The notes beneath the pieces are model-generated. The model did no database searches and was not told the DNA's origin. It saw only the letters and a list, made by a program, of their open reading frames with translations. A stretch of 64,000 nucleotides of DNA from a virus. Location of the stretch: the UHGV virus genome UHGV-0101699. One strand, 5' to 3'. The position numbers and the translations under genes were made by a program. The first letter of the stretch is position 1. Each line of letters begins with the position of its first letter. Positions 3,472-61,111 of the stretch are shown in pieces.

Positions 3472-3485
3472 AGTAACTAGTTACT
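3472..3485. promoter_or_regulatory. palindrome AGTAACTAGTTACT between cobS and cobT
   Basis: read directly. Confidence 0.4.
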
Positions 3486-3505
3486 TATTTTATAGGGCGC
3501 AAGGT

Positions 3506-5785
3506 TTACTCTAAAATGATACGAGATAACTCGCTGACAACTGACGTACCCAACTCTTCGACCTTATTCACTAGCGCATAGTTTTTGTAATACCGGCGCG
3601 GCGCGTCCGTAAGAATGCCAATGGCCAACAGGTTGATGTCACTTGTGTTTTCGATGTCATTCGTTACAGAGCGCAGATGGTTACTAAAGCCATCCCCCGC
3701 AGCGCATGGGGCGCCGTCGCTCTGCACAATCATGATCTTCTTGTCTTCCATACGCCCTGCAAACAGAGAAGCCAGCTGTGCGATGCTCTCGCCATCCACG
3801 TTGTTTAGCAGGGGGAAAGTCTCCGCCACACAGCCCATACGAGCACGTATCTCTGGGGAGTTCGCTTTTTCATGCCAGTTTTTAATAATCGGCAGCATAA
3901 GCGCTTCAAAGCGGCTAAACCCACGTTTCGACATAGTTGCTACATCCGGATTGCCATACGTAGTGAAGCCGGTAATGACGTTCGGAACGTGGATACGATC
4001 TAGGGCGTCAGCCAGTGTGTATGCGGATGCCAGCGCGAGCTCGATTTTTCGGCCGCCCATTGAACCTGACAAATCGATGACCTGTTGAACGCACGCGTTC
4101 ACGGCCTTGTGGTCTTCTTTTCTCCGGAATACCCGATCGTCATTCATCGACAGTCGGTAAAGACTCGCCCCATGTACGCGTCCACGACGCTGGCCAGGGA
4201 TGAACTGAACACGGTTACGACTGGCGATCGCGCGCTCCAGGTCTTTGGCCAAGGTAGATGACACCGAGGAAGACAGATGTCTCTCCACCTTCATCACAAA
4301 CAGTTTTCTGCCCTCTGGAACAATGCGGTAGCGATCTACGGGAGAATACATAGGGATTGCGCCAAAAGCTTTTCTGGCGCGCTTAATATGCTCTTCTGCC
4401 TCGTCAATTGGCCCCAGAAAGTCGTAGGAGCGATTGTATGGCCGGTAATCAGATAGTGACGCGCTGGCCAGCTCCGACTTGATCGCCGACGCCAGCGCAT
4501 CTTCGGTTGAAGAACCTATCTCTTCATCGACGTTTTCTAATGCCTTGAGAGCATCATCAAGAGACATATCGTCAGCGTGTGGGGCAAAGCCGGCATCGCT
4601 TTCATCCGAGGTGTCCCGACCCCCTTCATCCTTCTCCTTGCCACCGTCTTTATCTGCCTTGCCTTCACCGTCTTCGACAGCTTCGCTGTCATCAGAGGAG
4701 CTGCCATGCCTGTCCTCTGAGCCATCATCCGTGGACGGACTGTAATCCCCTTCATCATCTACTTCTTCCCCTACATCCGAGCCCAGAGATGTAACAGGAT
4801 CATCAGCTGTCGTTTCTTCGCTGTCAGGCAAGTCGTCAACATTTTCATGGCCTAAATCGCCATCTTCAGGTTTACTTTCTGTATCATTTATTACTTCATC
4901 ACTGTTAGGTATGTGCTTACTTATCGATTTGTCTGATTTTTCATCATCTTCATCGTCAGAGCTAAACCCATCAGGAGTGCTTTCGAGCCCCTCTTCGTCA
5001 CAAACCTCAGTATCGTCTCCAGCAGCCGGCTCATCCGAACTGTCTTCTTCTGGTTCGGTCTTTTTGGTTACAGAGGATTCAAGCTCAGGTAACGGGCCTT
5101 CTGGCATCTCAGTCATTTCACGCAGGATCTTCGCCATTGCTGCAGCAACCTTGACGCAATCCTCAGTGCTATCCATACGACGAACAGCTTCATCGACGCC
5201 AAACTCTTTCAGTACGGCAATAGGTTTATCGATGAGGTGCCAGTGCTCCTCCATGAAATCAACAAAAGTTGGTTGGCCATCCCACGCCCGTAGAACCGGA
5301 CAGAGGAAGAACTTTAGAAACAACTCGCGTTGATCCCCGCGGCACATCGCTACCGCCTTTTTAATGTGGGGATTAAAATATTTATCAATCATTAGGTTAC
5401 GTGTGGACAATAGGTTCCGCCGGCTGCCGGTGAACACTTCACTCATGCGACGTTCGATGTAGACGTCTTCCAGGGCGTTCCAGAGTCCGAATGCCTTTGT
5501 GTTGCGCATTTTCTTGACGACTTTTTCGTCTGTGAAAAGGAGATGGCCAACCTCGTGATCAAGGAATCCACGTATGGCATTCATAAGCGCAGGGCTTGCG
5601 TCATCTGGTATGGATGGGATGTTAACCATGACTGGCTCACCCTTTTTATTGTAGCGAACGTATGCTGTGTCTCCGCATTCAGCTACAGGAATATTCTTGC
5701 CCGAAAGAAGACCAACGACGCGTTTTACGGAATCGCGGAAGTCCTGTACCTCTTTGAGTACAGTTTTGCTGGGTTTGGTTGCCAT
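3506..5785 (-). CDS. cobT: CobT-like protein: N-terminal domain, long Asp/Glu/Ser-rich acidic linker, C-terminal vWA domain
   Basis: ORF 3506..5878; likely true start MATKPSKTV at 5785 (preceded by AAGGAAAAACACATG); vWA/MIDAS-like DLSGSMGG...IVQSDGAP; ~180-aa low-complexity acidic region (about 4560-5100); pairs with upstream AAA+ ATPase. Confidence 0.6.
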   Translation of the reverse strand: MATKPSKTVLKEVQDFRDSVKRVVGLLSGKNIPVAECGDTAYVRYNKKGEPVMVNIPSIPDDASPALMNAIRGFLDHEVGHLLFTDEKVVKKMRNTKAFGLWNALEDVYIERRMSEVFTGSRRNLLSTRNLMIDKYFNPHIKKAVAMCRGDQRELFLKFFLCPVLRAWDGQPTFVDFMEEHWHLIDKPIAVLKEFGVDEAVRRMDSTEDCVKVAAAMAKILREMTEMPEGPLPELESSVTKKTEPEEDSSDEPAAGDDTEVCDEEGLESTPDGFSSDDEDDEKSDKSISKHIPNSDEVINDTESKPEDGDLGHENVDDLPDSEETTADDPVTSLGSDVGEEVDDEGDYSPSTDDGSEDRHGSSSDDSEAVEDGEGKADKDGGKEKDEGGRDTSDESDAGFAPHADDMSLDDALKALENVDEEIGSSTEDALASAIKSELASASLSDYRPYNRSYDFLGPIDEAEEHIKRARKAFGAIPMYSPVDRYRIVPEGRKLFVMKVERHLSSSVSSTLAKDLERAIASRNRVQFIPGQRRGRVHGASLYRLSMNDDRVFRRKEDHKAVNACVQQVIDLSGSMGGRKIELALASAYTLADALDRIHVPNVITGFTTYGNPDVATMSKRGFSRFEALMLPIIKNWHEKANSPEIRARMGCVAETFPLLNNVDGESIAQLASLFAGRMEDKKIMIVQSDGAPCAAGDGFSNHLRSVTNDIENTSDINLLAIGILTDAPRRYYKNYALVNKVEELGTSVVSELSRIILE

Positions 5786-5804
5786 GTGTTTTTCCTTATC
5801 GAGT

Positions 5805-5817
5805 AAACAAATTGTTT
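5805..5817. promoter_or_regulatory. AAACAAATTGTTT palindrome upstream of cobT-like gene
   Basis: read directly. Confidence 0.6.
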
Positions 5818-5902
5818 TCAGATATAAGAAAATAACACTGCGCGAACAGGGGAGGAAGCAATTCGCGCAGGGGATCAATGAGTTATAGGCGGGTTATAAA
5901 TT

Positions 5903-6133
5903 TTAGTTGATTCGAACCGCGAAAGAGAGGTCGCCAGTATTGATCAGCGTGAAAGAGCCATTTTCCAGGGAAAACCGGAAAACAGTAGCGTCGCGCGCTC
6001 TAACGTTTACCTGGTGATTTGGTAACTCAGATAGTACTTCTGCAGCCTCCAGGTGTGTCAGCGCGAAAACATTGCCTACATTCAGAGCAAGTAAATTAGA
6101 TGACAATTTTTCCATTAATAGCATCCTAATCAA
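5903..6133 (-). CDS. hypothetical small protein (76 aa), divergent from HTH gene; possible Cro-like switch partner
   Basis: ORF with normal GC flanked by AT-rich intergenic DNA; no recognisable motif. Confidence 0.3.
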   Translation of the reverse strand: MIRMLLMEKLSSNLLALNVGNVFALTHLEAAEVLSELPNHQVNVRARDATVFRFSLENGSFTLINTGDLSFAVRIN

Positions 6134-6341
6134 CAGGTTTCATTTGGAGGTGATGGTACTACCTATTGATATAAAAGTTAATAAAAATGTATCGTAATGT
6201 CTTAAACAAAAATAATCAAAAAAATCAACAGAAGTACCGGATTTTACTAATTTATACCTTATTTCGTGTGATTTATGTGCGATAATTGCCTACAAATAGC
6301 CGGATGTAAGACTTTACAATAATAACCGTTGCTGTAATATC

Positions 6342-6355
6342 GGTAAGTACTTACC
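6342..6355. promoter_or_regulatory. perfect palindrome GGTAAGTACTTACC upstream of HTH gene
   Basis: read directly. Confidence 0.6.
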
Positions 6356-6388
6356 ATACAATAAGATCACACGAGGATAGTAACTACA

Positions 6389-6769
6389 ATGACAATGGCC
6401 GATGAGAAGACCGCTCGTTACGTCGCCTACATCGATTCTTTAATCACTGTTTCGCCGAAAAGTCAGTCGGCGATCTCCCGTGAGATTGGTTACAAGAATC
6501 CCAACATTTTGTCCCTGATAAAAAAGGGAAGAATTCCGCTGCCGGTAGAGAAAGTGCTACCACTGGCAGAAGCACTGAATGCAGACCCAGTACGTCTCAT
6601 GATGATGGTTCTTGAAGACCGTCAGCCTGAGCTGGCAGATTTTTTACGAGACCAGGGCATAGCGCCGCTGACTCCGGAAGAACGTGAGGTTCTCGCAGCT
6701 TTCCGCAACCGCTTTCCGGCTCAAACTGATGGTGTTGAGCAGGTTGTGGAAGCAATTAAAAAGCTATGA
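6389..6769 (+). CDS. XRE-family HTH DNA-binding protein (candidate repressor/regulator)
   Basis: 126 aa; HTH-like SQSAISREIGYKNPNILSLIKKGRIP; perfect palindrome GGTAAGTACTTACC 34 bp upstream; adjacent to integrase. Confidence 0.6.
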   Translation: MTMADEKTARYVAYIDSLITVSPKSQSAISREIGYKNPNILSLIKKGRIPLPVEKVLPLAEALNADPVRLMMMVLEDRQPELADFLRDQGIAPLTPEEREVLAAFRNRFPAQTDGVEQVVEAIKKL

Positions 6770-7864: not shown

Positions 7865-7962
7865 AATCTGGCCACTGTATGACGCTTTTTATACTGTGTT
7901 TATATACAGTATATTAGGCATTGTTTTTATTGAGATCAACCTAAAATACCCTCTTTTGTCTA

Positions 7963-7993
7963 ATGATTCCATACCTACCAAGTATGGAATCAT
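7963..7993. promoter_or_regulatory. perfect 11-bp inverted repeat ATGATTCCATA-n9-TATGGAATCAT upstream of int, followed by AAAGGCCTTTTTTT hairpin
   Basis: read directly; the same 11-mer recurs at 11959-11969 and 13252-13262. Confidence 0.5.
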
Positions 7994-8213: not shown

Positions 8214-8573
8214 ATGATGACCTTAAAATATTATTTACGGCACTGCTTATGGGGATGGTGTGGTTATGGCTATCTGATCTATTTTATAGTGCGCGATATG
8301 AATGACGGACTAATTTTTCCTGCCTATGTTCCTTATATGCCATTTGTGGTTACATATCTTGTTTTAAGCGCCGTCCTGTACCCATTCTCATATTATACTT
8401 CGGAGAAACTAGCCCTTAAGATAATGACCAAACCCTTTTGGGATCGTCACATTGGCGTGAATAGCGGTGTGTATGGCATGTTCATTATTTTGTGGTTATT
8501 TTGCCTGCCGCTTTCGGTACCGTTATTTCTCGTATATTTATGCATACGCGCAAAGACTAGATTAAGTGCCTAA
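8214..8573 (+). CDS. pore-forming-colicin immunity protein homologue (colicin E1/10-class Imm-like inner-membrane protein)
   Basis: 119 aa, 3-4 predicted TM helices; pattern TLKYYLRHCLWGWCGYGYLIYFIV...VLYPFSYYTSEKLALKIMTKPFWDRH parallels remembered ColE1 Imm [24 protein letters not shown]...[26 protein letters not shown]; AT-rich, plus-strand, own promoter region. Confidence 0.55.
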   Translation: MMTLKYYLRHCLWGWCGYGYLIYFIVRDMNDGLIFPAYVPYMPFVVTYLVLSAVLYPFSYYTSEKLALKIMTKPFWDRHIGVNSGVYGMFIILWLFCLPLSVPLFLVYLCIRAKTRLSA

Positions 8574-8637
8574 AAAATATGAAAATTATCGCAATATAAC
8601 CACGCTACGAATGAGAAAGGCATGGAGCTGCAGGTAA

Positions 8638-9048
8638 CTACGGGTTTGTTAATTTCTGGAAGGCTGCCGCGTATTTGGCGATGTCGCTCATTTTGGCTGG
8701 ATCACTGGCTGTTTTGTGTGCCTCTTTCGGGAAGATGGCCAGCAGACTATACACGTCCTGAAACTTGGCGTGCTGGGTATAAACGAGGGCGCGGTCGCTT
8801 GTACAGTTGAACCTGTTTCGGTGACTATTTCGTTCTTGCTTGGTGAATAAGAGATGAACGTGGTAAACACGAGAGGAAACTACAGAACCAGGTTCGGTAT
8901 AGGGGCCATCTTTGCCAAAAACGGCCGGATAAAAGCCGTTTTTAAAACTCACAAAGTCAGCAAGTAAGGAGGTCTTCAGATCAGGCATTACTCTGAAGAC
9001 CGGCTCCAAAAATTGGGCGTAACTATCACTGTTCCATGTGACTTTCAT
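8638..9048 (-). CDS. YafO-like toxin (ribosome-dependent mRNA interferase family) homologue
   Basis: 136 aa; LLADFVSFKNGFYPAVFGKDGPY / HVHLLF / ALVYTQHAKFQDVYSLLAIFPKEAHKTASD resemble remembered E. coli YafO LTADFISYKRDGVLPDTFGRDALY / HIHL / HLVYCQGAFDEQAWLLIAILKPEPHKLARD. Confidence 0.5.
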   Translation of the reverse strand: MKVTWNSDSYAQFLEPVFRVMPDLKTSLLADFVSFKNGFYPAVFGKDGPYTEPGSVVSSRVYHVHLLFTKQERNSHRNRFNCTSDRALVYTQHAKFQDVYSLLAIFPKEAHKTASDPAKMSDIAKYAAAFQKLTNP

Positions 9049-9057
9049 CGATCAGCC

Positions 9058-10398: not shown

Positions 10399-10407
10399 TT
10401 TGTTTCC

Positions 10408-11184: not shown

Positions 11185-11283
11185 ATTGAGTCCTTTCAAG
11201 TGAGTAACCAGACGAACTATACCTAAAAGAGAACGCAAAAGTAAGTAAGTAGTTACATAACAACAAGAGCGCTTATGCAAGAA

Positions 11284-11690: not shown

Positions 11691-11765
11691 TGGCGATGGT
11701 GGGTGGATTCGAACCACCGACCAGTTGATTAACAGTCAACCGCTCTACCACTGAGCTACACCATC
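11691..11765 (-). tRNA. tRNA-Asn (anticodon GUU)
   Basis: reverse complement GATGGTG-TAGCTCAGTGGTAGAGC-GGTTGACTGTTAATCAAC-TGGTC-GGTGGTTCGAATCCACC-CACCATC-GCCA. Confidence 0.75.
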
Positions 11766-12130: not shown

Positions 12131-12694
12131 CGTGCTGGCTCACCTAACCAGCCGGGTTACGTCGCCATTTTTAACCCAAAACTAAACGACATAAGTAACA
12201 GAAATGACGTAACAGGATAGACGGTCGGGCCTTTGGGAGCCGGGATGTGTTGGACATAAAACCCAACCGCCCATTCTGTTACCTCATCGGTAAGGGCACT
12301 GGTTAACCAGATGCCCTACCTGCGTTTTGCAATCACACTCGCTTAGTGTGTCCCATTTCGGTGACGAGGCTGGAAACTGACCTCGCTGGTGTTTAGCTTT
12401 TTAGGCTACTGCCAGGTACTGATTGTCGTTTGCAGTTATCTTTAAACGTTCAAACAGTCGCGTTTCAACGAAAACAAGCCAATCATAGTTGTATCAATTT
12501 AATAAGTAAATACTTACCTATTATTTCATACGTCAGTTTGATCATTTTTTGATCAGTACTGGCTTCTCATCCTGCGTCCGTTGGATTGTGGCCGTTAAAC
12601 GTTTGACTCTGATCAATCGCACTTTCTTAGATCTGTAGCAGTCACCTGTTCTACGTTGTTAATACATTTTGTCGTCTATGAACGTATAAGTGAT

Positions 12695-16230: not shown

Positions 16231-16276
16231 GTGATGTCCTCCACAACCAGAAATAAAATTATTACATGAAAATATG

Positions 16277-16290
16277 TAAGTAGCTACTTA
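16277..16290. promoter_or_regulatory. TAAGTA-family palindrome TAAGTAGCTACTTA
   Basis: perfect 14-bp palindrome in divergent region. Confidence 0.5.
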
Positions 16291-16518
16291 TCAAAAGACA
16301 GCGAAGAGGGACATAATGGCACCAACCCAACACAGCAGTGCATAGGCCACAAGAGCGTTTAGCTCGGAGCGAAGCTATCTATCAAGACTTAACCTTACTA
16401 ATGCTGTTCGTACTCTGCTAACATCTTAAAGCGCACAGCAATGTGTCAGGGTATTGACCACCCTGATTGATAACAAACGCCATAAAATCAGAATGCGTTT
16501 TGCATAGAAGAGGAAGGT

Positions 16519-20359: not shown

Positions 20360-20372
20360 AAACAAGTTGTTT
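20360..20372. promoter_or_regulatory. AAACAAGTTGTTT palindrome upstream of dnaB-like gene
   Basis: read directly. Confidence 0.6.
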
Positions 20373-21126: not shown

Positions 21127-21404
21127 GCCCCCACCGATAGGTAACTACTTACTTAACATTTGGCTGATCATATCGACTAGTTACTGTTTTTGGAAGTGGA
21201 AACGGAAGGGAATGTGTCTGGGAATTTGGTATAAAAAGCCTGTCTCCATATAAATAATATGTAGCTTAGTATTTATATACAAAAGCAGGCTACAAAACAG
21301 ATGCCCAGAATCACATAATTTGATTTAATTCCCAGATGCTATGTTACTGACAGAACTGACTGATTAACCAAGGCTGACCATGTTAAAATCAGCGCTTTAT
21401 CCTC

Positions 21405-22478
21405 GTGAGTATTATCAATATGCGCATGAACAAACTTCCCGGATATGGTCTTCCCGAGCTGGCTTTCTGGCCTCAGCCTAAATACGAACGAAATAATTGG
21501 TCTATGTTCTGTCTGAAACTTCGTGATGATGGAACTCTGGCTTGGTATAGGCGATATGTTGATCGAGGTATGCCAAACCTCGCCTTTGATGACGTCTACG
21601 ATAGCTATCTTGATGCAAGAAAAGCGGCGGAAGAACTAAATAAAAACATAGCTTTCAATATAGATGATCTATCTTTAACTCAGCAGCAAAGAGAATCACT
21701 ACGCTTAAAAATTGATAAGGCGCTCATCTCAAAATCGCGACTGATGGATGAGGAGCATATGATGCTAAATGAGGCCATTAGAAGACACACGAACGATCGA
21801 CGTTTGTCATCAGATGAGCTAATTATCAAACCTGAAGGGTTAATCGTACGTCCCTATCTGCTAGACATACTACACGAGATGCCTTACTTGCATTGGATTT
21901 TCCTACCCACCTTCCAGACATGTTTCAGACTAACAGAACCTAACACCTGGGAGCAAGTGCATAGCCCCAGAGCAAAATCATCCAAAATTTGCTACCAGGA
22001 ACGTATCGCCAGAGGGTTTGGTTTATCAGGCACTGCACATTGGGGCAAAACAAAAGCGACTATTCGCTCAATGCTTCTGCCACGTGCCAACCAGCTACTA
22101 CAACTCGCCAGCGTAAAAAGAATGCTGGATGAGGCTCTCCGGAATGGACGAAAAGTAATCGTCGTTGGCAGCTTTGTTTTCTGGTTCGAAGACATAAATC
22201 AGATAGGTTGGAGTGTTAAAGAAGCAAATGACAGCGAAATTACCTCAAGAGGCAATACGCTCTGGAAAGAAGGTACTATCATTTCAAAAAATCACGGTCG
22301 AATAGTCGTTCTACCGTATACAAAGGAAAACGGTGAGCATGTAAAAGGCTACACCAAGAACGCCCCCAACGACGGCAAAGCGATTCCGAGGCATAAGGAT
22401 GAGTATGTTGAGCTGCCATTTGAAATTCTGGATGGTGACTTGATGTTCAGCCTGTTCGGTGAACTTAACTACGAATAA
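21405..22478 (+). CDS. hypothetical 357-aa protein on opposite strand with own promoter region and terminator (moron)
   Basis: ORF; divergent AT-rich region 21127-21404; terminator 22497-22531. Confidence 0.65.
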   Translation: MSIINMRMNKLPGYGLPELAFWPQPKYERNNWSMFCLKLRDDGTLAWYRRYVDRGMPNLAFDDVYDSYLDARKAAEELNKNIAFNIDDLSLTQQQRESLRLKIDKALISKSRLMDEEHMMLNEAIRRHTNDRRLSSDELIIKPEGLIVRPYLLDILHEMPYLHWIFLPTFQTCFRLTEPNTWEQVHSPRAKSSKICYQERIARGFGLSGTAHWGKTKATIRSMLLPRANQLLQLASVKRMLDEALRNGRKVIVVGSFVFWFEDINQIGWSVKEANDSEITSRGNTLWKEGTIISKNHGRIVVLPYTKENGEHVKGYTKNAPNDGKAIPRHKDEYVELPFEILDGDLMFSLFGELNYE

Positions 22479-23600: not shown

Positions 23601-23613
23601 AAACAACTTGTTT
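23601..23613. promoter_or_regulatory. AAACAACTTGTTT palindrome upstream of parA
   Basis: read directly. Confidence 0.6.
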
Positions 23614-26588: not shown

Positions 26589-26637
26589 GAATAAGTCAAA
26601 TCGGATGGCAGATTTATATCATAAATTAGAAACTTAT

Positions 26638-26659
26638 TGTAGGTAAGTACTTACATACA
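26638..26659. promoter_or_regulatory. TAAGTA-family palindrome TGTAGGTAAGTACTTACATACA (1 mismatch)
   Basis: intergenic between tail fibre stop and holin start. Confidence 0.5.
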
Positions 26660-26666
26660 AAATGGA

Positions 26667-42442: not shown

Positions 42443-42492
42443 TTCATCCTTGAAAAACTCAACGTCACATCCTGTGACGTTGATATATAATA

Positions 42493-42516
42493 ATAGATAA
42501 GTACTTACTTATCTAT
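42493..42516. promoter_or_regulatory. TAAGTA-family palindrome ATAGATAAGTA-CT-TACTTATCTAT
   Basis: 11-bp arms, between M stop and L start. Confidence 0.5.
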
Positions 42517-48926: not shown

Positions 48927-48976
48927 TATTGGAAAACTCCTTTTTCCGTTAAAACAGTGTCATTCCGACACACAAT

Positions 48977-48994
48977 AGTAAGTATATACTTACT
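48977..48994. promoter_or_regulatory. TAAGTA-family palindrome AGTAAGTATATACTTACT
   Basis: 18-bp perfect palindrome between U stop and V start. Confidence 0.5.
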
Positions 48995-49386
48995 TATTTA
49001 TTCAGTTCAATAAAGTACCCGGCAAATTCAAGTGGAATCCCCGTTTCAATAAGCGATCCGTCATTTATTGGATACGTTATTGGCATCGCCATCGGCCTAA
49101 CCATTTTGAAGAATACCCCGTCAGACTCAACGTTGCTAACAGGAAGGATATCCATGATTTTGTTGGCCATTTCAACAGATTTTGTGATACTCGCATTGCG
49201 AACTACTATCGTGAATGAGTCGAAGTAAAAACCCTGCAAATCCGGGTCGATGGTTATGCCTGTATTGGGATTAATCAGCAAAATGCCAGACTTAACTTTT
49301 GCTGGCATATAGTGACAGAAAATGTCCGTCCCTACTTTTCCAAGCCCATTTTTCTGTATCAATTTTGCGAATGCTTCTACAAACAT
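48994..49386 (-). CDS. U: tail terminator U-like
   Basis: ORF 48994..49473; internal start MFVEAF at 49386 gives 131 aa (lambda U size) abutting upstream stop. Confidence 0.5.
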   Translation of the reverse strand: MFVEAFAKLIQKNGLGKVGTDIFCHYMPAKVKSGILLINPNTGITIDPDLQGFYFDSFTIVVRNASITKSVEMANKIMDILPVSNVESDGVFFKMVRPMAMPITYPINDGSLIETGIPLEFAGYFIELNK

Positions 49387-52037: not shown

Positions 52038-52083
52038 ATATCGCTCCTATAAAAAGGGCGGGCGTATAGCCCACCCATTTAAA

Positions 52084-52111
52084 AATAATAGGTAAGTACT
52101 TACCTATTATT
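52084..52111. promoter_or_regulatory. 28-bp perfect palindrome AATAATAGGTAAGTACTTACCTATTATT (TAAGTA family)
   Basis: verified base by base; between capsid stop and decoration gene start. Confidence 0.7.
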
Positions 52112-53942: not shown

Positions 53943-55517
53943 TCACTCGGTTGCTTGAGTTGATGAGTTCCCATTCCCTTGGGATAGATCTTGTCCGCTC
54001 TCTTGGACCGTATCACGATGATAAGTAAGTACTGACTTATTTTCAAGGGTGTTAAGAGCATTTTTTGGCGGAAAATTCAAGAGATCTTTCTCAAATTCTT
54101 TCTGCATCGCGGCCGAAATATTCGGGAAGATTTTCTCAATGAGCATTTCCATCTGATATCGACGCACAGAATCCGGTGCTTCCAGCAGCCCAAGTTTCTC
54201 GGCAACGGCAAATTCATCCGTCAGACCGCGGATATCAAAGCTCTCCGGATAGGCAATCAGCGAATGCTCCTCATCGAGATCGACCCCCATCCACTTCGCC
54301 GCCAAAAACATCATCTGGCGTTCAGCCCGCTCAAGACGCTCGGCTTTAGTAATAAGCAGACTATTAACCCGCTGAAAATCATATAACTTGGCGGCCCCGG
54401 ATGAATTATCGATCCCCTTAGCGTTATCCTGCTTTGTTCGCTCGCCAGCGACCCCAACGGAGTGGTAGATCTCATTAATCACGGTCTGGATAGTGGTGAT
54501 GATCATCTGAGCTTGCTTAGGGTCTGGCGACAAATAAAAAGGCTGGTTGCCACTTTCCGAGTCATAGGTGAAGACGCGTTTTGTCCCCATTTCCATTACC
54601 TTTGCGTGATTCTCATCGCCTGGCAGGAGCGACTGAACGGGAATGGCCAGTTGGCTGAACGTCTGATCCTGAATAATGGCGTCAAGGTTCGACAGATAGT
54701 TGGCTACTGCACGGTCAAGGTAGGCGATATCATCAATAAGCGACGGGCTAAAATACGGCGATTCGCTCTCCCCTATGCAATCAACAGGAAACACAGGTAC
54801 AACGCCAAGTTTGTGTTCGCCTTTATCTTCAAGCACAACTTTTGCGGTCCGACGACCGGCATTCCCGGCGCCTTTCTTAACCTCTTCCCGGAATAGATAC
54901 CACTCGTTACGTGTCCATAGACGATAACGCTGATATTCCTGGCCAGATGAGGTAAAAGGATCTTGATCATCGCGCGCCACTTCGACAATCAGCGCCCAGA
55001 TCAAATTGCCGTCATCGTCCCACGCCATATCCAACATCTGCTGCGGAGAAATCCAGTAGGCATAGGCGCGAACATCCTTCTTCTTCTCGTCAGCGACGGA
55101 TTCTGCGTCACTATCCATCGTGCTATCGACCACCACCCAGACACGGCCATAGATGGAGGACTGGAGGTCAAGCGCGGACATAAAGCCATCGATGGAAACA
55201 TTATGTCGTGTCGCGCGTTTCCAGAACTTCTGAATTGGCTCAGGCGCTTCTTCTACATTTCGATGGATGTCCTCTTTAAAGAGATATTTATTAATCAGGT
55301 TCACCACTTCCCTGGTGTGATTGAAGCGGTAGGCGCGTTCCAGACGCTCCTTGAACTCCTGATCACCTTCTTTGAAGTATCGGAAAATGTTGTCATCGAA
55401 CCAGGCACGCCCGCCAGCGTATGTGCTGGCGAGGAAATCCCAGTGCTCTTTTTTCTTTATGTATTCGGGGTGGCGTCTTGCCACAAGATCCTTAATTTGC
55501 TTATCAGTCAATTCCAT
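53943..55517 (-). CDS. portal protein
   Basis: ORF 53943..55532; second Met MELTDKQ at 55517 has GGAAGGA SD; size and position. Confidence 0.65.
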   Translation of the reverse strand: MELTDKQIKDLVARRHPEYIKKKEHWDFLASTYAGGRAWFDDNIFRYFKEGDQEFKERLERAYRFNHTREVVNLINKYLFKEDIHRNVEEAPEPIQKFWKRATRHNVSIDGFMSALDLQSSIYGRVWVVVDSTMDSDAESVADEKKKDVRAYAYWISPQQMLDMAWDDDGNLIWALIVEVARDDQDPFTSSGQEYQRYRLWTRNEWYLFREEVKKGAGNAGRRTAKVVLEDKGEHKLGVVPVFPVDCIGESESPYFSPSLIDDIAYLDRAVANYLSNLDAIIQDQTFSQLAIPVQSLLPGDENHAKVMEMGTKRVFTYDSESGNQPFYLSPDPKQAQMIITTIQTVINEIYHSVGVAGERTKQDNAKGIDNSSGAAKLYDFQRVNSLLITKAERLERAERQMMFLAAKWMGVDLDEEHSLIAYPESFDIRGLTDEFAVAEKLGLLEAPDSVRRYQMEMLIEKIFPNISAAMQKEFEKDLLNFPPKNALNTLENKSVLTYHRDTVQESGQDLSQGNGNSSTQATE

Positions 55518-55532
55518 TTGTTTTCCTTCCAT

Positions 55533-55554
55533 GATAGGTAAGTACTTACTTATC
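55533..55554. promoter_or_regulatory. TAAGTA-family palindrome GATAGGTAAGTACTTACTTATC (1 mismatch) overlapping terL stop, 5' of portal RBS
   Basis: read directly. Confidence 0.5.
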
Positions 55555-56806
55555 TTGAGCCACCAAGAATAACACGATTTTTTACGGGATACCTACGATG
55601 AACCGGGTAGCCCAAGGCATCCGCGCTGTGCTCAATCCCCCCGCTCTTATCCATATCGCGCGAGCCTGGTTTGTAGATAACTTTCTCCAGTGAATCGATG
55701 AGATGTTTGCACTTAGGGTCGATATACAAACGAGTTTCGCCAGAGGCGCTCATCAACATGCGGTTCACTGAGTTCACACGATCAGCAATCGGTGGGTGCT
55801 TTTTCGGATAATCAACACGCAGAAAGCCCTTCTCCTTGAAGATGTCGATGTCCGATTCCCCACGAGCGTGCTGACGATAGGCGCCGGCCGGGTCTGGGAA
55901 AATTGTGACCTGCGATTTCCACCGCCAGAAGCGACGCTCCAGCTCATCGCACACTTCTGCCGTATTCGACGAAAACAAGACAAGCTCATCCACAGCCCAC
56001 AGCTCCCCATTCGGTTGTGGCTGCAGGATGACCGACGACATTGGATCAATGTTGAAGTCCTGGCCTACCCACACCGGTAATTTAGGATTGAACTGCAGCG
56101 GCTTAACGTGAACGCTACGATCGAACGGGTAATACACGCGCCCTGACATGTTTTCGAAGCTGGCGAGGTACTCCTGAGCGAACGACTTAGGGTCCATATC
56201 GTTCTTGGCTGCCTCGATTTCTGCCGTCGGAACGAATGGTGAATCAGCGGTTACAAACTGCCAGCTTTTCCACTGACCTTTGCGCTGCAGCTCTTTGTTC
56301 TGCCCGATAGTCCATAGTTTATGGAATTCGGAGAACCCTTTCGGTGTACCGATGATCAGCGCGCCGCCGCGGGTGGATGACAATGTCGGACGGAGAACCT
56401 TGTACCAGGTGTCTGGCTTCATATCCTGGAACTCGTCGAGCACAACGAAATGCAGCGCAACACCACGAAGCGTATCCGGTTTATCCGCGCCTTTAAGCGC
56501 GATCTCCGAACCGTTTTTCAACACGATGGTCATCGTGGTGTCGTTCTTCTTCCGAATCCACTTACGCGGCAGAACCTCCTGCAGATCATCCCATAGAATC
56601 TGGCGCGCCATTTGGTAGGTCGGCGCGACGTACCAAACTCGTTGTTTTCTTTCCTTAGCGGCAGCGCGAATGATGGTTGAGATCGACAGCCTCGATTTAC
56701 CCCAACGTCGTCCGGCGCACACCACTTTGAAACGATGTGGCGACTGGAAGACTTGCATCTGCCCGGAATGCAGCTGTACGAGACTTAGAGACGACGGGAT
56801 GGACAT
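55550..56806 (-). CDS. terL: terminase large subunit
   Basis: Walker A VVCAGRRWGKSR, Walker B VVLDEF; C-terminal nuclease-like region. Confidence 0.8.
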   Translation of the reverse strand: MSIPSSLSLVQLHSGQMQVFQSPHRFKVVCAGRRWGKSRLSISTIIRAAAKERKQRVWYVAPTYQMARQILWDDLQEVLPRKWIRKKNDTTMTIVLKNGSEIALKGADKPDTLRGVALHFVVLDEFQDMKPDTWYKVLRPTLSSTRGGALIIGTPKGFSEFHKLWTIGQNKELQRKGQWKSWQFVTADSPFVPTAEIEAAKNDMDPKSFAQEYLASFENMSGRVYYPFDRSVHVKPLQFNPKLPVWVGQDFNIDPMSSVILQPQPNGELWAVDELVLFSSNTAEVCDELERRFWRWKSQVTIFPDPAGAYRQHARGESDIDIFKEKGFLRVDYPKKHPPIADRVNSVNRMLMSASGETRLYIDPKCKHLIDSLEKVIYKPGSRDMDKSGGIEHSADALGYPVHRRYPVKNRVILGGSR

Positions 56807-56808
56807 GG

Positions 56809-57450: not shown

Positions 57451-57492
57451 AGATCCCTCTAAAACACACACAGAGCGCTTCCTTGCGCTCTT

Positions 57493-57505
57493 AAACAATT
57501 TGTTT
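57493..57505. promoter_or_regulatory. AAACAATTTGTTT palindrome (member of 4-copy TnAAACAAnTTGTTTTCT family)
   Basis: 43 nt upstream of terS start; other copies 5805-5817, 20360-20372, 23601-23613. Confidence 0.6.
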
Positions 57506-57554
57506 TCTAGTTGTATTAATTAGGTCTGGGGAATCTGTTTGAGAGCCTGCTTTC

Positions 57555-57603
57555 GTATATATTTAATAAGTGACTTATTAGTTATATATACAGCCGCAGG
57601 CTG
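57555..57603. terminator. AT-rich imperfect palindrome GTATATATTTAATAAGT-g-ACTTATTAGTTATATATAC followed by CAGCCGCAGGCTG hairpin
   Basis: read directly; downstream of gene 57626..57892. Confidence 0.35.
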
Positions 57604-57625
57604 TTAATCTGACTCCCAGACCAAC

Positions 57626-57892
57626 TTACATCACCAGTAACTTGGCTCTGGCTCGACCTAATGTCGTCAGCCCCAGAGTTCGACGCTGGTAGCCAGAATC
57701 CTCTCGCGGCCGGCAGTCGTGCTTTTCGACCAAACCTTTCTTGATCAGCGCGCGCAGGGAGAATTGCATAGACTGCTTTGTCGTCCGGTAAGGCAGCACT
57801 TCCAGCAGCTCGTCCAGATCGAGCAAATGTCCACGTTCATGGCCTAAGTTGATGGTCTTAATGATGTCTTTCTGTTTATCAGTCAGTGTCAT
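57626..57892 (-). CDS. small winged-helix-like transcriptional regulator, candidate
   Basis: 88 aa; last gene of GNAT/ABC/ParB operon. Confidence 0.45.
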   Translation of the reverse strand: MTLTDKQKDIIKTINLGHERGHLLDLDELLEVLPYRTTKQSMQFSLRALIKKGLVEKHDCRPREDSGYQRRTLGLTTLGRARAKLLVM

Positions 57893-57901
57893 GGCAAATC
57901 C

Positions 57902-58801
57902 TTATGCCGGTAACGCAATATCCAGTGGTGCATTCAGCGGTTGTTTATCAAAAGCCAGCAGTGGCAGTGTGTCAGGCAGCTGGCGACCAAAATCAGGGTT
58001 GCGATAAACCCCATAGAGCGGTGAAGTGAAGCTCAGATTGTGAATATCCTTGAGCAGTTTCACGATGCTGGCCTCATCCACCAGGCTATCCGCGATATCC
58101 TGAATGGTAGTGCCACGGTTGCGGCCTGCTTTTGCCAGAGAACTATTCTTGTGATAGTCCGCCACCAGATCTCGCAGAGCGCGGCGCCGGCGTGAATCAG
58201 TCATCGCAAACAGCTCTTTCACAATCGCTTCGTTGTCGCCGGGATCAGAACGAAAATGGCGCTGAAAGACGCGAAGCGCGCTTTCGTAGCTCTTCGGACG
58301 TTCAGGACGGATGAAGCAAAACCCTGCTTTCATGGCAAACGGGTTATATTTGCTCATCGACGACTGGATCTCGATGATTGGCCGGTCATGCATCCTGCTA
58401 ACCAGATTAATCATGCGATACGATACCCCGACGCCACGATACTGGGTGTCCACTACAGAGCGGCTGATCACAGCGAAGTTGTTGTTTACGTAACGTCCCC
58501 AGTACTGATTTGCCACAGTGGTGTTGGTTGTGGGTTTCAGCTTTGGAAACATGCGATGCCGCGGCGCCAGCAGCAGTTTAGGGAAGGCCATAACTACAAC
58601 GCCTACCAACCGACCATCTAGCTCACAACGGTAGTAGGTAGGGGCGAACGGCTTCCCATCTGTCTTGTAGTGAAGCGACTTAAGCGCGTGCCAGTCTTCT
58701 ACCGTCCCCCTGGTGACGGTCATGCGCTCAAGAAAGTCCAGATGGCGCGGGAACTCCTCCGGGCGATACCGTTTGATGATGATGTCTGTCATGCCGATCA
58801 C
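57902..58801 (-). CDS. GNAT-like acetyltransferase-fold protein with C-terminal extension, candidate
   Basis: 299 aa; motif-A-like AVISRSVVDTQYRGVGVSYRMINLV. Confidence 0.4.
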   Translation of the reverse strand: MIGMTDIIIKRYRPEEFPRHLDFLERMTVTRGTVEDWHALKSLHYKTDGKPFAPTYYRCELDGRLVGVVVMAFPKLLLAPRHRMFPKLKPTTNTTVANQYWGRYVNNNFAVISRSVVDTQYRGVGVSYRMINLVSRMHDRPIIEIQSSMSKYNPFAMKAGFCFIRPERPKSYESALRVFQRHFRSDPGDNEAIVKELFAMTDSRRRRALRDLVADYHKNSSLAKAGRNRGTTIQDIADSLVDEASIVKLLKDIHNLSFTSPLYGVYRNPDFGRQLPDTLPLLAFDKQPLNAPLDIALPA

Positions 58802-59052
58802 CTGCGCTCGATATTGGCATTGATGAAGTCCAGGCGAAGCGATTCCATCGCCCCAACCATGACGTATGGGCGCCCACCGTTATGCCAGCAATCCAGAACA
58901 CTCCCGTCGTTATTGATCATCAGCAGCGCCAGGCTCTGGCTTTTGCCTTCTCTGGCGTACTGGAGTGCATCTTCCAGCAGGCGGATGACTTCAACGTTAT
59001 TGTTGTCAGTCTCTTTCGATGGCTTCAGCTCTACGATCTTCAAATCAGGCAT
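58798..59052 (-). CDS. hypothetical 84-aa protein
   Basis: ORF overlapping neighbours by 4 and 8 nt. Confidence 0.45.
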   Translation of the reverse strand: MPDLKIVELKPSKETDNNNVEVIRLLEDALQYAREGKSQSLALLMINNDGSVLDCWHNGGRPYVMVGAMESLRLDFINANIERR

Positions 59053-59683
59053 ATTCCACCTTCACGCGTTCTTTGTAGTGCTTGGTGATCTGCATATCCG
59101 GGCGCAGCGCGTTCTTCAGGTCTTCGTGGGTCGTCGCCACCATTACCGTCGCACCTACCTTTCGCGCGGCACGCTGGAGGTTCGACGCCACAACCTGGGC
59201 GGTAACACGATCAAGAACTGCGCCAAATTCATCCGCAGCCCATACCTTTGCGCCCGACTCAATAAGCTTGGCGATCTTGAGCCGGTATTTCTGGCCATCC
59301 GACATTTCAGAAGGTTTGCGCACAAAGAGATAGGCATCATTCAAGCCAGCCATCGAAAGCAGCCCTAACGCTTCGCTGGTGGTTTTACCCAGTTGGTCAA
59401 TGACATTGACGTCGTTGTCAAAGGTAAAGTCATCAATGGAGGCGACTGAAAGCCCTTCATCTTTCATCTGGCGTTGTAGCTCACGCAGCACGACAGATTT
59501 TCCGGAGCCTGACTGGCCAGTGATGTAGACCACATCACCCTGCTCGACTTCCAGCTCAAGATTGTCGTAAAGCGTCCAGTCTTTTTCATCCAGACCAAGC
59601 CCAAACGATTCGGCGATCTCAAGCGTGCGAGTGGTCTTGTTGACACGGGTCTGGAACGATACGTTGATGGTATATGTGCTCAT
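59045..59683 (-). CDS. stand-alone minimal ABC-type ATPase (NBD only, 212 aa)
   Basis: Walker A ITGQSGSGKS, signature MSDGQKYRL, Walker B VWAADEFGAVLD, H-loop ATTHE. Confidence 0.7.
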   Translation of the reverse strand: MSTYTINVSFQTRVNKTTRTLEIAESFGLGLDEKDWTLYDNLELEVEQGDVVYITGQSGSGKSVVLRELQRQMKDEGLSVASIDDFTFDNDVNVIDQLGKTTSEALGLLSMAGLNDAYLFVRKPSEMSDGQKYRLKIAKLIESGAKVWAADEFGAVLDRVTAQVVASNLQRAARKVGATVMVATTHEDLKNALRPDMQITKHYKERVKVEYA

Positions 59684-60357
59684 GCTTCGACTCCCCCGGA
59701 GGAAACTTTCTGCGCATAAGCAACGAACGCGTCTACCCCGCTCTCTCCCGTGATTTCTTCCATGTGGGCAAGCAAATCCCCCACGACAATCGCAGAGCCA
59801 GCAGGGAGCGTTTTAAAGCCCAGAACATCGACCACTCGAACCTCTTCGGCGGCGACTTCGCGACTGATTTCGGTGTGCTCTTCTTTCTGGCGCTCGGTTT
59901 CCTCCCCCAGATCCATAACCAGTGCGCCAGTATCCATTTCTTCGGTCATGCTACCGACCAGCACGTTCAGCTCACGCTCGTCAAAGCCGAAGACTTCAAC
60001 GTCACCAAATACCAGAGACTCCAGCTCTTTCTGTAACTTGATGGCATCGTAATCAATGCTGGCCAGCCGGTTATCCTCCAGACGCTTCGCCTTCACTTCT
60101 TCATCGGACAGATCGTCGCGAACGATCACCGGCACACTTTTCAGCCCCGCTAAAAGCGCAGCTTCGCGGCGGCCATGGCCAGTAATGATGACATCGTCTT
60201 TATCGACAGTGATCGGCTGGTCAAAACCACGCTTTTTTATGGCTGCGGCCAGGTCACGGATCTGCTGCTCGTCATGCTTTTTGGCGTTCATTTCATAGGG
60301 AATGAGCTCTGCCGGGTCTCGGTAGACGATTTCGAACGTTTTGGTCATTAAATACAC
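59680..60357 (-). CDS. ParB/Srx-fold (ParB N-terminal-like nuclease domain) protein
   Basis: 225 aa; ...PITVDKDDVIITGHGRREAALLAGLKSVPVIV. Confidence 0.65.
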   Translation of the reverse strand: MYLMTKTFEIVYRDPAELIPYEMNAKKHDEQQIRDLAAAIKKRGFDQPITVDKDDVIITGHGRREAALLAGLKSVPVIVRDDLSDEEVKAKRLEDNRLASIDYDAIKLQKELESLVFGDVEVFGFDERELNVLVGSMTEEMDTGALVMDLGEETERQKEEHTEISREVAAEEVRVVDVLGFKTLPAGSAIVVGDLLAHMEEITGESGVDAFVAYAQKVSSGGVEA

Positions 60358-61058
60358 TCCTTGTAGTTATCGACCAGCCATACCAGAGCTTCACCAGCAT
60401 TCTCCATGTCGTTGCCGGTGTTGATCGCCTGCTCTTTGATGATGGATTTGATGGTTTCGGTAACGCGATCAGAAGCGTCAAACGTCACTTTGAAGCGCAT
60501 GGTCTGGTGTTCCGCACCAACACGCTCAGCTTTTTCGCGAGAGTCCTTCTCAATGGGCTCTTCGTCGCCACGCGACAACGCCTCAAGCATTTCCAGGTCA
60601 ATTGCCGACTCACGAGCTAGTGTGGCCGCCAGTTCGTCGTCGTAAGGGGCAATTTCCGACAGCTGATAATCGAGTTCTGACTGAATTTCCTCGATCAGAC
60701 GCTGTAATGCGACCTGATCGTCTTCGCCGTATCGCTCGTTATCGACCAGAGACATTTGTTTCGCTACCAGATCGCTTATTTTGCCCACCGATATAACAGG
60801 AACCGTGGAAATACCCTGTTCCATAGCGGCTCGCCAGCGATGTTCGCCACCGAGGATCTCAAATTGGCCACCGTCCAGCTCACGCGCGAGAATTGGCTTG
60901 AAAAAACCCAGTTTTTCGATGGAGCCTTTCAGTTTTTCGAAGTTTTGAGCACCAACCGAGTTGGTGTTCCAGGGATTTGGCCGGAGTCTGGCCACTTCTA
61001 CCTGCAGAATGGTAATTTTTACGTCCATACTTTTTGATACAATCCATTGCATAAGCAC
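60348..61058 (-). CDS. ParB/Srx-fold protein (second, tandem)
   Basis: 236 aa; LRPNPWNTN...FEILGGEHRWRAAMEQGISTVPVI (GxxRxxA ParB box). Confidence 0.7.
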   Translation of the reverse strand: MLMQWIVSKSMDVKITILQVEVARLRPNPWNTNSVGAQNFEKLKGSIEKLGFFKPILARELDGGQFEILGGEHRWRAAMEQGISTVPVISVGKISDLVAKQMSLVDNERYGEDDQVALQRLIEEIQSELDYQLSEIAPYDDELAATLARESAIDLEMLEALSRGDEEPIEKDSREKAERVGAEHQTMRFKVTFDASDRVTETIKSIIKEQAINTGNDMENAGEALVWLVDNYKECI

Positions 61059-61111
61059 TTACTTACTATTCTAGCCAATTAACATATAAAAGGCACGAAG
61101 GAAAGATATTT

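Follow-up and report, generated by a model that had tools for sequence, protein, structure and literature searches.

Dispersed palindromes in an SSU5-like phage-plasmid: candidate binding sites for a dimeric regulator of the lytic modules

Introduction

Could a single palindromic word, repeated between the genes of a phage-plasmid, serve one regulator at many places? In phage-plasmid P1, the C1 repressor has more than 15 scattered operators. Here the question is raised by a window of 64,000 nt (that is, the whole stretch of DNA analyzed), which belongs to an SSU5-like phage-plasmid and shows 99% identity to Klebsiella phage pJN2-26. The first-pass annotation of the window listed AT-rich palindromes at 13 places and read them as the distributed operator set of a master regulator, with RNase III processing sites or stabiliser hairpins as the alternative. 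We examine both readings, together with other roles that such repeats could have.

Results

All 13 listed sequences were located at their positions. They belong to one family (family A), whose consensus tGATAGGTAAGTACTTACCTATCa is a symmetric word of 20–24 bp, composed of two independent half-sites (A)TA(G/A)GTAAGT in inverted orientation. About 26 copies are spread across the phage-plasmid, 14 of them inside the window. In the window, TAAGTACTTA with no more than one mismatch was observed 12 times against 0.66 expected, a number never attained in shuffles, and 13 sites score 18.7–37.6 with a 24-bp symmetrised matrix, for which the maximum among 50 dinucleotide shuffles was 17.4. The motif frequency is thus above chance. 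The scan also added one site absent from the earlier list, 4903–4926. In the entire 110-kb genome, the top-repeated 9-mers are AGTACTTAC and AAGTACTTA. Among the 26 sites of pJN2-26, 23 are intergenic, though 88% of the genome is coding.

The sites are confined to lytic modules, namely replication/nucleotide metabolism, packaging, head, tail and lysis, and the rep and parA neighbourhoods have none. The top consensus match is a 28-bp perfect palindrome at 52084–52111 (score 37.6), which begins 4–6 nt past the stop of the major capsid gene and is followed by an intrinsic terminator (52056–52076, minus strand) and then by the next gene; in SSU5 (5469) and Rhizobium RHEph10 (474), orthologues likewise come after the capsid gene. 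At the TerL/portal junction, the site 55532–55555 (36.1) includes the TerL stop codon and the portal start lies 14 nt beyond its end, and the junction also has a site in SSU5 (2029), pHCM2 and Acinetobacter pABTJ2 (80086). The site 54019–54042 (32.0) lies within the 3′ end of the portal gene, and is overlapped by a sigma-70-like match (TTGAAA-17-TATCAT); SSU5 (3542) conserves it, and the pHCM2 copy is identical. A variant with four extra bases in the centre, TATA, occupies 48976–48999 (24.5; listed as 48977–48994), followed by a small hairpin and T-run (48957–48971, minus strand), and SSU5 (9065) and pHCM2 share this variant at the equivalent place. Between tail genes M and L, the site 42491–42514 (32.5) is followed by an intrinsic terminator (42459–42483, minus strand), and the same junction is occupied in SSU5 (15587) and RHEph10 (13524). 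The site 26637–26660 (28.5) lies 6 nt past the tail-fibre stop and 60 nt ahead of the holin start; its SSU5 orthologue (27472) has the centre GCGC.

In the remaining part of the window, 21135–21158 (28.9) is located 8 nt upstream of a 241-aa gene preceding a DnaB-like helicase, and sites are found around this gene pair in pABTJ2 (2558) and RHEph10 (27457) too. A second variant, with four extra bases and AGCT in the centre, is present at 16270–16293 (24.9; listed as 16277–16290) in a divergent intergenic region, 39 nt ahead of the start of a minus-strand gene, with orthologues in SSU5 (38176) and pHCM2. The site 12500–12523 (33.8) is upstream of the tRNA-Asn region, and its pJN2-26 counterpart includes the stop codon of a small gene. 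Another divergent region contains 11239–11262 (25.3), 54 nt upstream of phoH. The added site 4903–4926 (22.1) lies within the CobT-like gene and has orthologues in SSU5 (43659) and pHCM2. Between the CobT-like and MoxR/CobS-like genes there is a degenerate site at 3467–3490 (18.7; listed as 3472–3485), a junction occupied in all four lineages (SSU5 45122, pABTJ2 16784, RHEph10 38558). The positions listed as 16277–16290, 48977–48994 and 3472–3485 are all occupied in both SSU5 and pHCM2.

Many sites adjoin or include the stop codon of the upstream gene. Based on distances determined in pJN2-26 and mapped to the window, 8 of the 14 sites agree with the earlier statement that most lie 20–60 bp ahead of a gene start; three others are at 8–16 nt, two (54019–54042 and 4903–4926) are intragenic and one is far from starts. 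Many have no recognisable promoter; they abut ribosome-binding sites, are intragenic or have an intrinsic terminator directly after them. Nor does the region hold an excess of sigma-70-like matches.

The family is not restricted to close relatives, since Salmonella, Acinetobacter and Rhizobium relatives carry related palindromes at matching gene junctions, with the word drifted. The homologous family is TTATTAGTAAGCGCTTACTAATAA in pABTJ2 (28 sites) and CAGTCAGTCAATATTGACTGACTG in RHEph10 (19 sites), and the junctions common to the families are CobT/CobS, hyp/SSB, RNaseH-like/NrdA, the divergent helicase/ParB-like 1, the position after MCP, and tail M/L. Between pJN2-26 and pHCM2, the sites are 82.9% conserved (core 88.2%) and the flanking non-coding DNA 73.6% (p = 3e-5). 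Family A is a real dispersed dyad-symmetric family under purifying selection. In CP027615, a second Klebsiella lineage, the arms GATAAGTAA/TTACTTATC are retained and the central 4 bp are variable. Constant arms with a variable centre are the usual operator anatomy for a helix-turn-helix dimer.

Such conservation bears on the idea that the palindromes are selfish or structural repeats devoid of regulatory role, either short mobile cassettes or recombination linkers for module exchange. The sites do mark module boundaries, and a gene replacement beside a site distinguishes the window from pJN2-26 at ~21.4–22.5 kb. However, they stay at orthologous junctions in very distant lineages, even as the word drifts in concert inside each genome; their conservation exceeds that of the flanks; and the exact 18-mer is restricted to SSU5-like contigs. 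We consider this idea very improbable.

Do the sites act as RNA? Their location between cistrons, on the transcribed strand, would suit RNase III processing sites, stabilisers or weak terminators in polycistronic mRNA, and perfect copies do fold (for example, 52097 at −11.3 kcal/mol, z −3.6). However, arms within a site are just as complementary as arms shuffled between sites (z −0.3, +0.1, +0.5 and −2.2 in the four lineages), and covariation between arms was found in none of the four. On the sense strand, G·U pairs are about as frequent as A·C mismatches, with no G·U excess, and other non-pairs make up 17–18% of pairs. A fold clearly better than that of shuffles was obtained for only 3 of 10 window sites, and several reach just −0.6 to −1.5 kcal/mol; stems have no more than 12 A-U-rich pairs, a consistent U-tract is absent, and Rfam gave no match for the sites. 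The hairpin alternative of the first-pass annotation is therefore rejected, because the arms are no more complementary than swapped arms and most sites fold poorly, and we regard it as extremely improbable.

The sites could instead start transcripts. In P1, late promoters carry the Lpa box, a −10 hexamer with a 9-bp inverted repeat near −22. By analogy, host RNA polymerase would be brought in by a phage factor bound to the dyad, every site being an activator-dependent promoter element. As in P1, a dyad beside a −10-like hexamer, lacking a −35, is repeated ahead of late genes: the outer arm resembles a −10 box in Klebsiella and Acinetobacter (TATCAT, TATTAT, TATAAT). In pJN2-26, 11 sites end 35–60 nt ahead of a start codon, which is a normal leader length. 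Full sigma-70-like matches occur at a few sites (54046–54018 and 12510–12482), and some sites come after a terminator, the order expected for a restart (pJN 28029, SSU5 55693). Unlike in P1, however, both sides of the symmetric element resemble a −10 box equally, and the resemblance is absent in Rhizobium (3/19 sites against 2/19 on the other side); intrinsic promoters are therefore excluded. Nothing is conserved outside the palindrome, several sites are too close to the gene for a leader with a ribosome-binding site, and at least four pJN2-26 sites have an intrinsic terminator directly after them, thus standing upstream and not downstream of it. An activator-dependent promoter at every site is consequently unlikely.

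Which protein, then, would bind the sites? The leading candidate is encoded at 6389–6769 (plus strand), an XRE-type helix-turn-helix regulator of 126 aa. It matches the PHROG annotation ‘transcriptional regulator’ (1.5e-8); Pfam and NCBIfam searches gave no hit for it. The site at 6337–6360 (23.3), of which only the core is present (GGTAAGTACTTACC, 6342–6355), lies 28 nt upstream of this gene. The layout is as the first-pass annotation described it: the XRE-type gene, a neighbour of int, is preceded by a perfect core and diverges from a small ORF. This ORF encodes 70 aa (5903–6115, minus strand; phrog_2627, unknown function), is in a Cro-like position and heads the CobT/MoxR/DnaE operon. A sigma-70-like match (TTTACA-16-TAATAT) at 6313–6340 ends just ahead of the core, which would therefore cover the transcript start. 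pHCM2 keeps the core at the equivalent place (GGTAAGTGCTTACT), so that the XRE-type gene bears a core site in its own promoter region in both Klebsiella and pHCM2.

Homologs of the XRE-type protein are present on 913 plasmids, with a genus spread equal to that of TerL. The homolog in phage Cyrano is annotated ‘putative repressor’, and we infer that it is CYRAN_45, the Cyrano gene with this annotation, which is expressed in lysogens (PMC9928086). The helix-turn-helix is ~72% identical between pHCM2 and CP027615, against ~39% for the whole proteins, and the two lineages have the half-site in common. In Acinetobacter and Rhizobium, the recognition helix of the homolog is different, and so is the half-site. 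However, the recognition helices of these two are closer to each other than either is to that of Klebsiella, and yet GTAAG is common to Acinetobacter and Klebsiella. Furthermore, SSU5 has no XRE-type gene or homolog, and it retains ~24 sites whose decay is no greater than in pHCM2. The two genomes are 95% identical, hence the loss may be recent; in favour of the candidate, SSU5, as a phage without the gene, is described as virulent (PMC5427195). On these sequence comparisons, the XRE-type regulator, a probable prophage repressor, is the most likely binder of family A, at somewhat less than even odds.

Other candidate DNA-binding proteins are conserved in all lineages, SSU5 included. Two paralogous proteins with a ParB N-domain are encoded on the minus strand at 59680–61028, ParB-like 1 at 60348–61028 and ParB-like 2 at 59680–60348 (Pfam ParB_N, 1e-14 and 4e-9), with PDB matches to the N-domains of Spo0J, ParB and Noc. 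KorB of the IncP plasmid RK2 is a ParB-family protein that silences promoters at a distance from ~12 dispersed palindromic OB sites. If family A were the loading or binding sites of one ParB-like protein, distant promoters could be silenced likewise: as in RK2, ParB-family genes are on the element, both being conserved in all lineages, and (near-)perfect palindromes of 13–20 bp, about a dozen or more, recur about once per 4–5 kb at variable promoter distances. Fully conserved palindromes of 14–20 bp, so spaced, fit the KorB/OB pattern. ParB-like 1 retains GGEHRWRAA where the ParB arginine patch sits. The weak site 61045–61068 (11.9; listed as 61051–61069; 17.2 in pJN2-26) lies between the divergent DEAD-box helicase and ParB-like 1, 16 nt ahead of the latter, and this junction is occupied in all relatives, for example pABTJ2 (72754) and RHEph10 (106200), so that Klebsiella, Acinetobacter and Rhizobium all have a site just ahead of ParB-like 1. 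Unlike for KorB, however, these proteins showed no helix-turn-helix or further DNA-binding domain apart from the N-domain, and the ParA of the plasmid has a locus elsewhere and a small partner of its own. Among the nearest phage families of the ParB-like proteins are nucleases with a ParB domain and methyltransferase fusions located next to terminases, suggesting a role in packaging, and the sites avoid the rep/par maintenance region, an avoidance for which a partition or condensation system would have no need. A ParB-like binder therefore appears unlikely.

The host nucleoid-occlusion protein SlmA should also be considered, in which case the dense array would couple the phage-plasmid to cell-division control. 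SlmA sites require G, T, A and G at positions 1, 2, 4 and 5, a purine at 3 and a pyrimidine at 6, and with A in place of G at position 3 the Kd is ~60 nM versus ~50 nM (Tonthat et al. 2011, PMC3020112). The core GTAAGTACTTAC fits this experimentally defined specificity at each position of its 12 bp, and exact/one-mismatch matches to GTRAGYRCTYAC number 6/18 in pJN2-26 and 4/11 in the window, where ~0.1 would be expected. The E. coli chromosome (4.6 Mb) has only 24–52 SlmA sites (PMC3573117), which are independent of gene junctions, lack conserved outer arms and are reported to lie outside promoter regions. Outside the 12-mer of family A, in contrast, ATAG/CTAT is also conserved, and nucleoid occlusion would not predict fixed gene-junction positions. 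In addition, the Rhizobium version GTCAATATTGAC and the CP027615 version with its variable centre break the SlmA rule, and neither genome has an exact match; the family is thus older than, and independent of, that rule. That the sites exist to bind SlmA is quite improbable.

Discussion

We propose, with a probability of roughly 55%, that family A consists of double-stranded DNA sites bound by a sequence-specific, symmetric (dimeric) protein that the phage-plasmid itself encodes, the likeliest being the XRE-type regulator, and that this protein would influence how the lytic modules are transcribed. A site that overlaps a promoter, as does the one at the XRE-type gene, would be an operator, and one placed after a stop codon and ahead of the following ribosome-binding site or terminator would be an elongation roadblock or insulator.

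A close comparison is P1 with its C1 repressor, also a plasmid prophage with one operator word dispersed genome-wide and one copy at the gene of the regulator. Induction would presumably proceed through an antirepressor, as in a P1-like system, because the XRE-type protein has no peptidase domain. The operators of P1, however, are asymmetric 17-mers overlapping promoters of early and regulatory genes, and its late operons are controlled separately via Lpa, whereas the sites here are symmetric, lie within late operons too and often have no recognisable promoter. Operators within late operons are unusual for a repressor.

A second dispersed palindrome family, AAACAANTTGTTT, is also present and appears promoter-associated; it could be the operator set of the repressor in place of family A. 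Because this second family exists, one master regulator is too simple, and what stands of the original proposal is a set of selected, dispersed dyad sites with operator properties. If the binding-site reading is true, the lytic program of this phage-plasmid would be under genome-wide control from ~26 sites.

Identity and gene content of the phage-plasmid

The window has a G+C content of 50% and shares 99% identity with Klebsiella phage pJN2-26, a circular SSU5-like phage-plasmid of 110 kb. Identity to Salmonella phage SSU5 is lower, at about 80%. Nearly all of its genes are on the minus strand. Among them are genes for DnaE, a MoxR/CobS-like and a CobT-like protein, the int/XRE region, phoH, ligase, primase, a DnaB-like helicase, parA, and genes for lysis, a 4058-aa tail fibre, tail, head and terminase, along with a cluster containing the two ParB-like genes. 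Homologs of TerL occur in more than 1000 plasmid records, and some SSU5-like elements are described in PMC9600943 as carrying resistance genes.

Two cargo genes lie beside the integrase, namely a YafO-family toxin gene (8214-8573, plus strand; Pfam 4e-22) and one whose small product gives a colicin E1 immunity-like match (8638-9048, minus strand). The sole Rfam match within the window is a tRNA gene (11694-11765, minus strand; annotated as tRNA-Asn in pJN2-26). A plus-strand ORF of 357 aa (~21405-22478), which has no Pfam match, replaces three minus-strand genes of pJN2-26 (0084-0086) and abuts a palindrome at 21135-21158; this replacement probably explains the 724-bp offset between the window and pJN2-26 maps. 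At 31722-32252, pJN2-26 encodes a protein with a strong Pfam match (4e-86) to the FljA family of phase-1 flagellin repressors. The gene is confined to the enterobacterial lineage, and its window counterpart would straddle the right end. Directly after MoxR/CobS, a sigma-70-family protein is encoded in the Acinetobacter plasmid pABTJ2 (18154-18819) and the Rhizobium phage RHEph10 (39826-40461), and only a 67-aa ORF occupies the same place in the enterobacterial lineage (window 1971-2174).

A dispersed family of conserved palindromes

The first-pass annotation had proposed that palindromes scattered between genes constitute the operators of a master regulator. Every palindrome sequence it named is present where it had been placed, and the recurrence is well above chance, since TAAGTACTTA with no more than one mismatch gives 12 matches versus 0.66 expected. 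With a symmetrised 24-bp matrix, whose consensus is TGATAGGTAAGTACTTACCTATCA, 13 window sites score 18.7-37.6 versus a best score of 17.4 among 50 shuffles. The scan added a site within the CobT-like gene (4903-4926) that the annotation had missed; at 61051, the window has only a weak copy.

In the whole genome of pJN2-26, the most repeated 9- to 12-mers are words of this motif. There, 26 sites were identified, 23 of them intergenic and three inside annotated genes, in a genome that is 88% coding. The sites accompany early modules (exonucleases, nrdA, thyA, methylase, SSB, helicase and CobT/CobS) as well as late ones (terL/portal, capsid, tail and holin). No pJN2-26 site is near rep or parA, and the idea that the palindromes form the centromere of the plasmid ParA was rejected because none adjoins parA. 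Sites are found at orthologous positions in SSU5 (24) and in pHCM2 (26). A comparison of pJN2-26 with pHCM2 gives identities of 82.9% for the 24-mers and 88.2% for the 12-bp cores, versus 73.6% for the flanking non-coding DNA (p = 3e-5).

Protein-binding site, RNA hairpin or promoter

Could the palindromes act as RNA? The first-pass annotation had offered RNase III sites or stabiliser hairpins as the alternative to operators. In an arm-shuffle test on four lineages, arms swapped between sites proved as complementary as those within a site (z = -0.3, +0.1, +0.5 and -2.2). The arms are thus no more complementary within than between sites, so the dyad reflects two independent matches to a half-site rather than selection for pairing. 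On the transcribed strand, A.C and G.U mismatches are about equally frequent, and other non-pairs amount to 17-18% of pairs. Only three of ten window sites fold clearly better than shuffles, and no Rfam match was found at the palindromes. On these grounds an RNA hairpin, an RNase III site, a terminator and a cruciform were all rejected. The same data contradict a REP-like stabiliser, as the arms do not covary, no compensatory or wobble upkeep is seen and most members lack a stable fold. What is conserved is the sequence, with sites more conserved than flanks, and not the base pairing.

Promoters were another possibility. The outer arms resemble -10 boxes in their A+T-rich versions, equally on both sides, and the resemblance is missing in Rhizobium. 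Outside the palindrome, nothing is conserved except a weak A-run, which largely reflects stop codons. An intrinsic sigma-70 promoter was consequently rejected. An activator-dependent promoter like the Lpa box of P1 would have a -10 element on the downstream side only, at a fixed distance; the sites show no such directional element, the -10 resemblance being two-sided and the palindrome essentially symmetric. Promoters read by a phage sigma factor were rejected too, because the sites are present in pJN2-26 and SSU5, in which no sigma homolog is detectable anywhere. What remains is that the palindromes are putative binding sites for a symmetric protein that binds double-stranded DNA.

Drift of the word at fixed junctions

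The word itself changes with the lineage. In pABTJ2, whose TerL is 60% identical, the most repeated word is TTATTAGTAAGCGCTTACTAATAA, with 28 sites. RHEph10, which is syntenic with SSU5 in gene order, has its own word, CAGTCAGTCAATATTGACTGACTG, with 19 sites. In a second Klebsiella lineage (CP027615), the arms GATAAGTAA/TTACTTATC are kept and the 4-bp centre is variable. Counted from the centre, T at -9, G at -6, T at -5 and A at -3 are common to all versions. The junctions are shared as well. A site occurs between CobT and CobS in all four lineages, and other junctions common to distant lineages are those between a hypothetical gene and SSB, between the RNaseH-like gene and NrdA, and between the divergent helicase and ParB-like 1 genes; further shared positions lie after the capsid gene, between tail genes M and L, and around the gene preceding DnaB. 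The palindrome family is therefore ancient. As the specificity has drifted with the phage lineage, the binding protein would be phage-encoded. A search for unrelated phages sharing the word, which might point to a common binder, found none, all 31 viral contigs with the exact 18-mer being SSU5-like.

Candidate binding proteins

The leading candidate is the XRE-type helix-turn-helix protein of 126 aa encoded at 6389-6769 (plus strand). It matches a PHROG 'transcriptional regulator' (1.5e-8) and has no Pfam match. Its homologs occur in 913 plasmid records with the same genus spread as TerL, and the gene is present in the Klebsiella, pHCM2, CP027615, Acinetobacter and Rhizobium lineages. A homolog in phage Cyrano is annotated as 'putative repressor'; we infer that it is the same gene as CYRAN_45, a Cyrano gene with this annotation that is expressed in lysogens (PMC9928086). 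As the first-pass annotation had noted, a core copy (6342-6355) stands upstream of the gene start at 6389. It is conserved in pHCM2, a result that concerns the presence of the site only. Located immediately after TTTACA-16-TAATAT, the core would overlap the start of transcription. In addition, pHCM2 and CP027615 differ little in the helix-turn-helix, although their proteins are only about 39% identical overall, and the half-site is common to both lineages. SSU5, which lacks the gene, is described as virulent (PMC5427195).

Two observations count against the XRE-type protein. Firstly, SSU5, in which the gene is absent, retains the sites, and they have not decayed. The loss may be recent, and a comparison of SSU5 with pHCM2 revealed no directional decay, in genomes that at 95% identity are too close to decide. 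Secondly, the recognition helices do not follow the motif cleanly across Acinetobacter and Rhizobium. A single-sequence AlphaFold model of the protein (pLDDT 52) was unusable. A perfect 9-bp inverted repeat, TCGTGTGAT / ATCACACGA (6264-6272 and 6366-6374, 93 nt apart), flanks the XRE promoter region together with its palindrome, and may represent the half-sites of another regulator or a looping pair.

The ParB-like proteins 1 (60348-61028) and 2 (59680-60348), both on the minus strand, are further candidates. These two ParB N-domain paralogs are conserved in every lineage, and the site at their operon (61045-61068) has orthologs in three lineages. ParB-like 1 keeps GGEHRWRAA at the position of the ParB arginine patch. 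A DNA-binding domain was not found beyond the N-domain; the phage families closest to them comprise, among others, nucleases and methyltransferase fusions, a profile search of the C-terminal domain against PDB sequences gave only chance matches, and a homolog search with ParB-like 1 returned, among the matches listed, near-identical proteins only. Near the C-terminus, the paralogs (59680-61028) have in common some 50 conserved residues (…RFKV…NAGDALV.L), which, judged from the sequence by eye, may form a strand-helix-helix. Another candidate binder is the 88-aa protein at 57626-57892, with a weak LexA-type winged-helix match.

Position of the sites and proposed action

The sites favour the upstream edge of the intergenic gap, and the left arm contains TGA, TAG or TAA, often providing the stop codon of the upstream gene. 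Of the pJN2-26 sites, eleven have 35-60 nt between their end and the next start, and six have 8-16 nt. At least four pJN2-26 sites are followed directly by a G+C-rich hairpin with a T-run, the ribosome-binding site coming only after it. In the window, such terminator-like hairpins are located 3-10 nt downstream of palindromes on the minus strand (52056-52076, 42459-42483 and 48957-48971), and the order palindrome, terminator, gene recurs in SSU5, pABTJ2 and RHEph10. Some sites adjoin the ribosome-binding site and some precede terminators. The geometry is not fixed, given these varied positions relative to promoters.

The proposal of a dispersed operator set thus holds in part. Copies far above chance, a conserved sequence and a site at the candidate repressor's own gene speak for it. 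Promoter overlap is plausible for the XRE-type gene and for a small number of further sites, and many have no recognisable promoter. The regulator would repress where its site overlaps a promoter, and elsewhere might block or insulate elongation at module boundaries.

A second dispersed palindrome, (t)AGAAAACAA-N-TTGTTTa, has window copies at 5805-5817, 20360-20372, 23601-23613 and 57493-57505, which are 18-42 nt upstream of the CobT-like, DnaB-like, ParA and TerS gene starts; a -10-like hexamer stands about 13 nt upstream. Exact copies number 11 in pJN2-26, 11 in SSU5, 13 in pHCM2 and 4 in 40 kb of CP027615, and none occurs in the Acinetobacter or Rhizobium relatives. This arrangement resembles a promoter-plus-operator cassette.

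Match of the core to SlmA-binding sequences

The binding sequence (SBS) of SlmA, the host nucleoid-occlusion protein, is a 12-bp palindrome with G1, T2, purine 3, A4, G5 and pyrimidine 6 (PMC3020112). Both GTAAGTACTTAC and the Acinetobacter GTAAGCGCTTAC fit this specificity at every position. The window, in which the SlmA-compatible 12-bp core is written as GTRAGYRCTYAC, contains four exact matches (6343-6354, 26643-26654, 52092-52103 and 55538-55549) and seven with one mismatch. The 110 kb of pJN2-26 contain 6 exact matches and 18 with one mismatch, versus 0.1 expected. The E. coli chromosome has 24-52 SlmA sites, and at mildly increased SlmA levels division is blocked by multicopy plasmids that carry SBS (PMC3573117); the density of matches in the phage-plasmid is about twenty times the chromosomal one.

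However, the family is also present in RHEph10, with no match to the SlmA rule, and in the CP027615 lineage, with no exact match. Since these versions break the rule, SlmA cannot be the reason that the family exists, and it was rejected as the selective agent. No phage-encoded SlmA-like protein was found. SlmA may nevertheless bind the enterobacterial sites, and the fit of the core to the rule suggests a possible link between a plasmid prophage and the cell-division checkpoint of its host. An unlikely further reading is that the enterobacterial SSU5-like sites double as genuine high-affinity SlmA sites onto which host SlmA loads. If they did, each plasmid copy would be a small 'nucleoid' that stops the division ring from closing over the plasmid, and the hundreds of copies present after induction would either prevent the host from dividing or titrate away all of its SlmA.

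Known systems and implications

Among described systems, P1 with its scattered C1 operators and RK2 with its KorB/OB regulon come nearest. The present family differs from the former by its symmetry and its location within late operons, and from the latter in that its ParB-like proteins are only candidate binders. No description of the motif, and no paper with GTAAGTACTTAC, was found in the searchable literature. The palindrome family appears to be a dispersed set of regulator sites.

SSU5-like phage-plasmids are very common in Klebsiella, E. coli, Salmonella, Yersinia (pMT1) and Acinetobacter, and their regulation is essentially undescribed. About 26 conserved putative binding sites at fixed junctions offer a testable map of the control of the lytic genome, and the conserved set provides a route to identifying the regulator.
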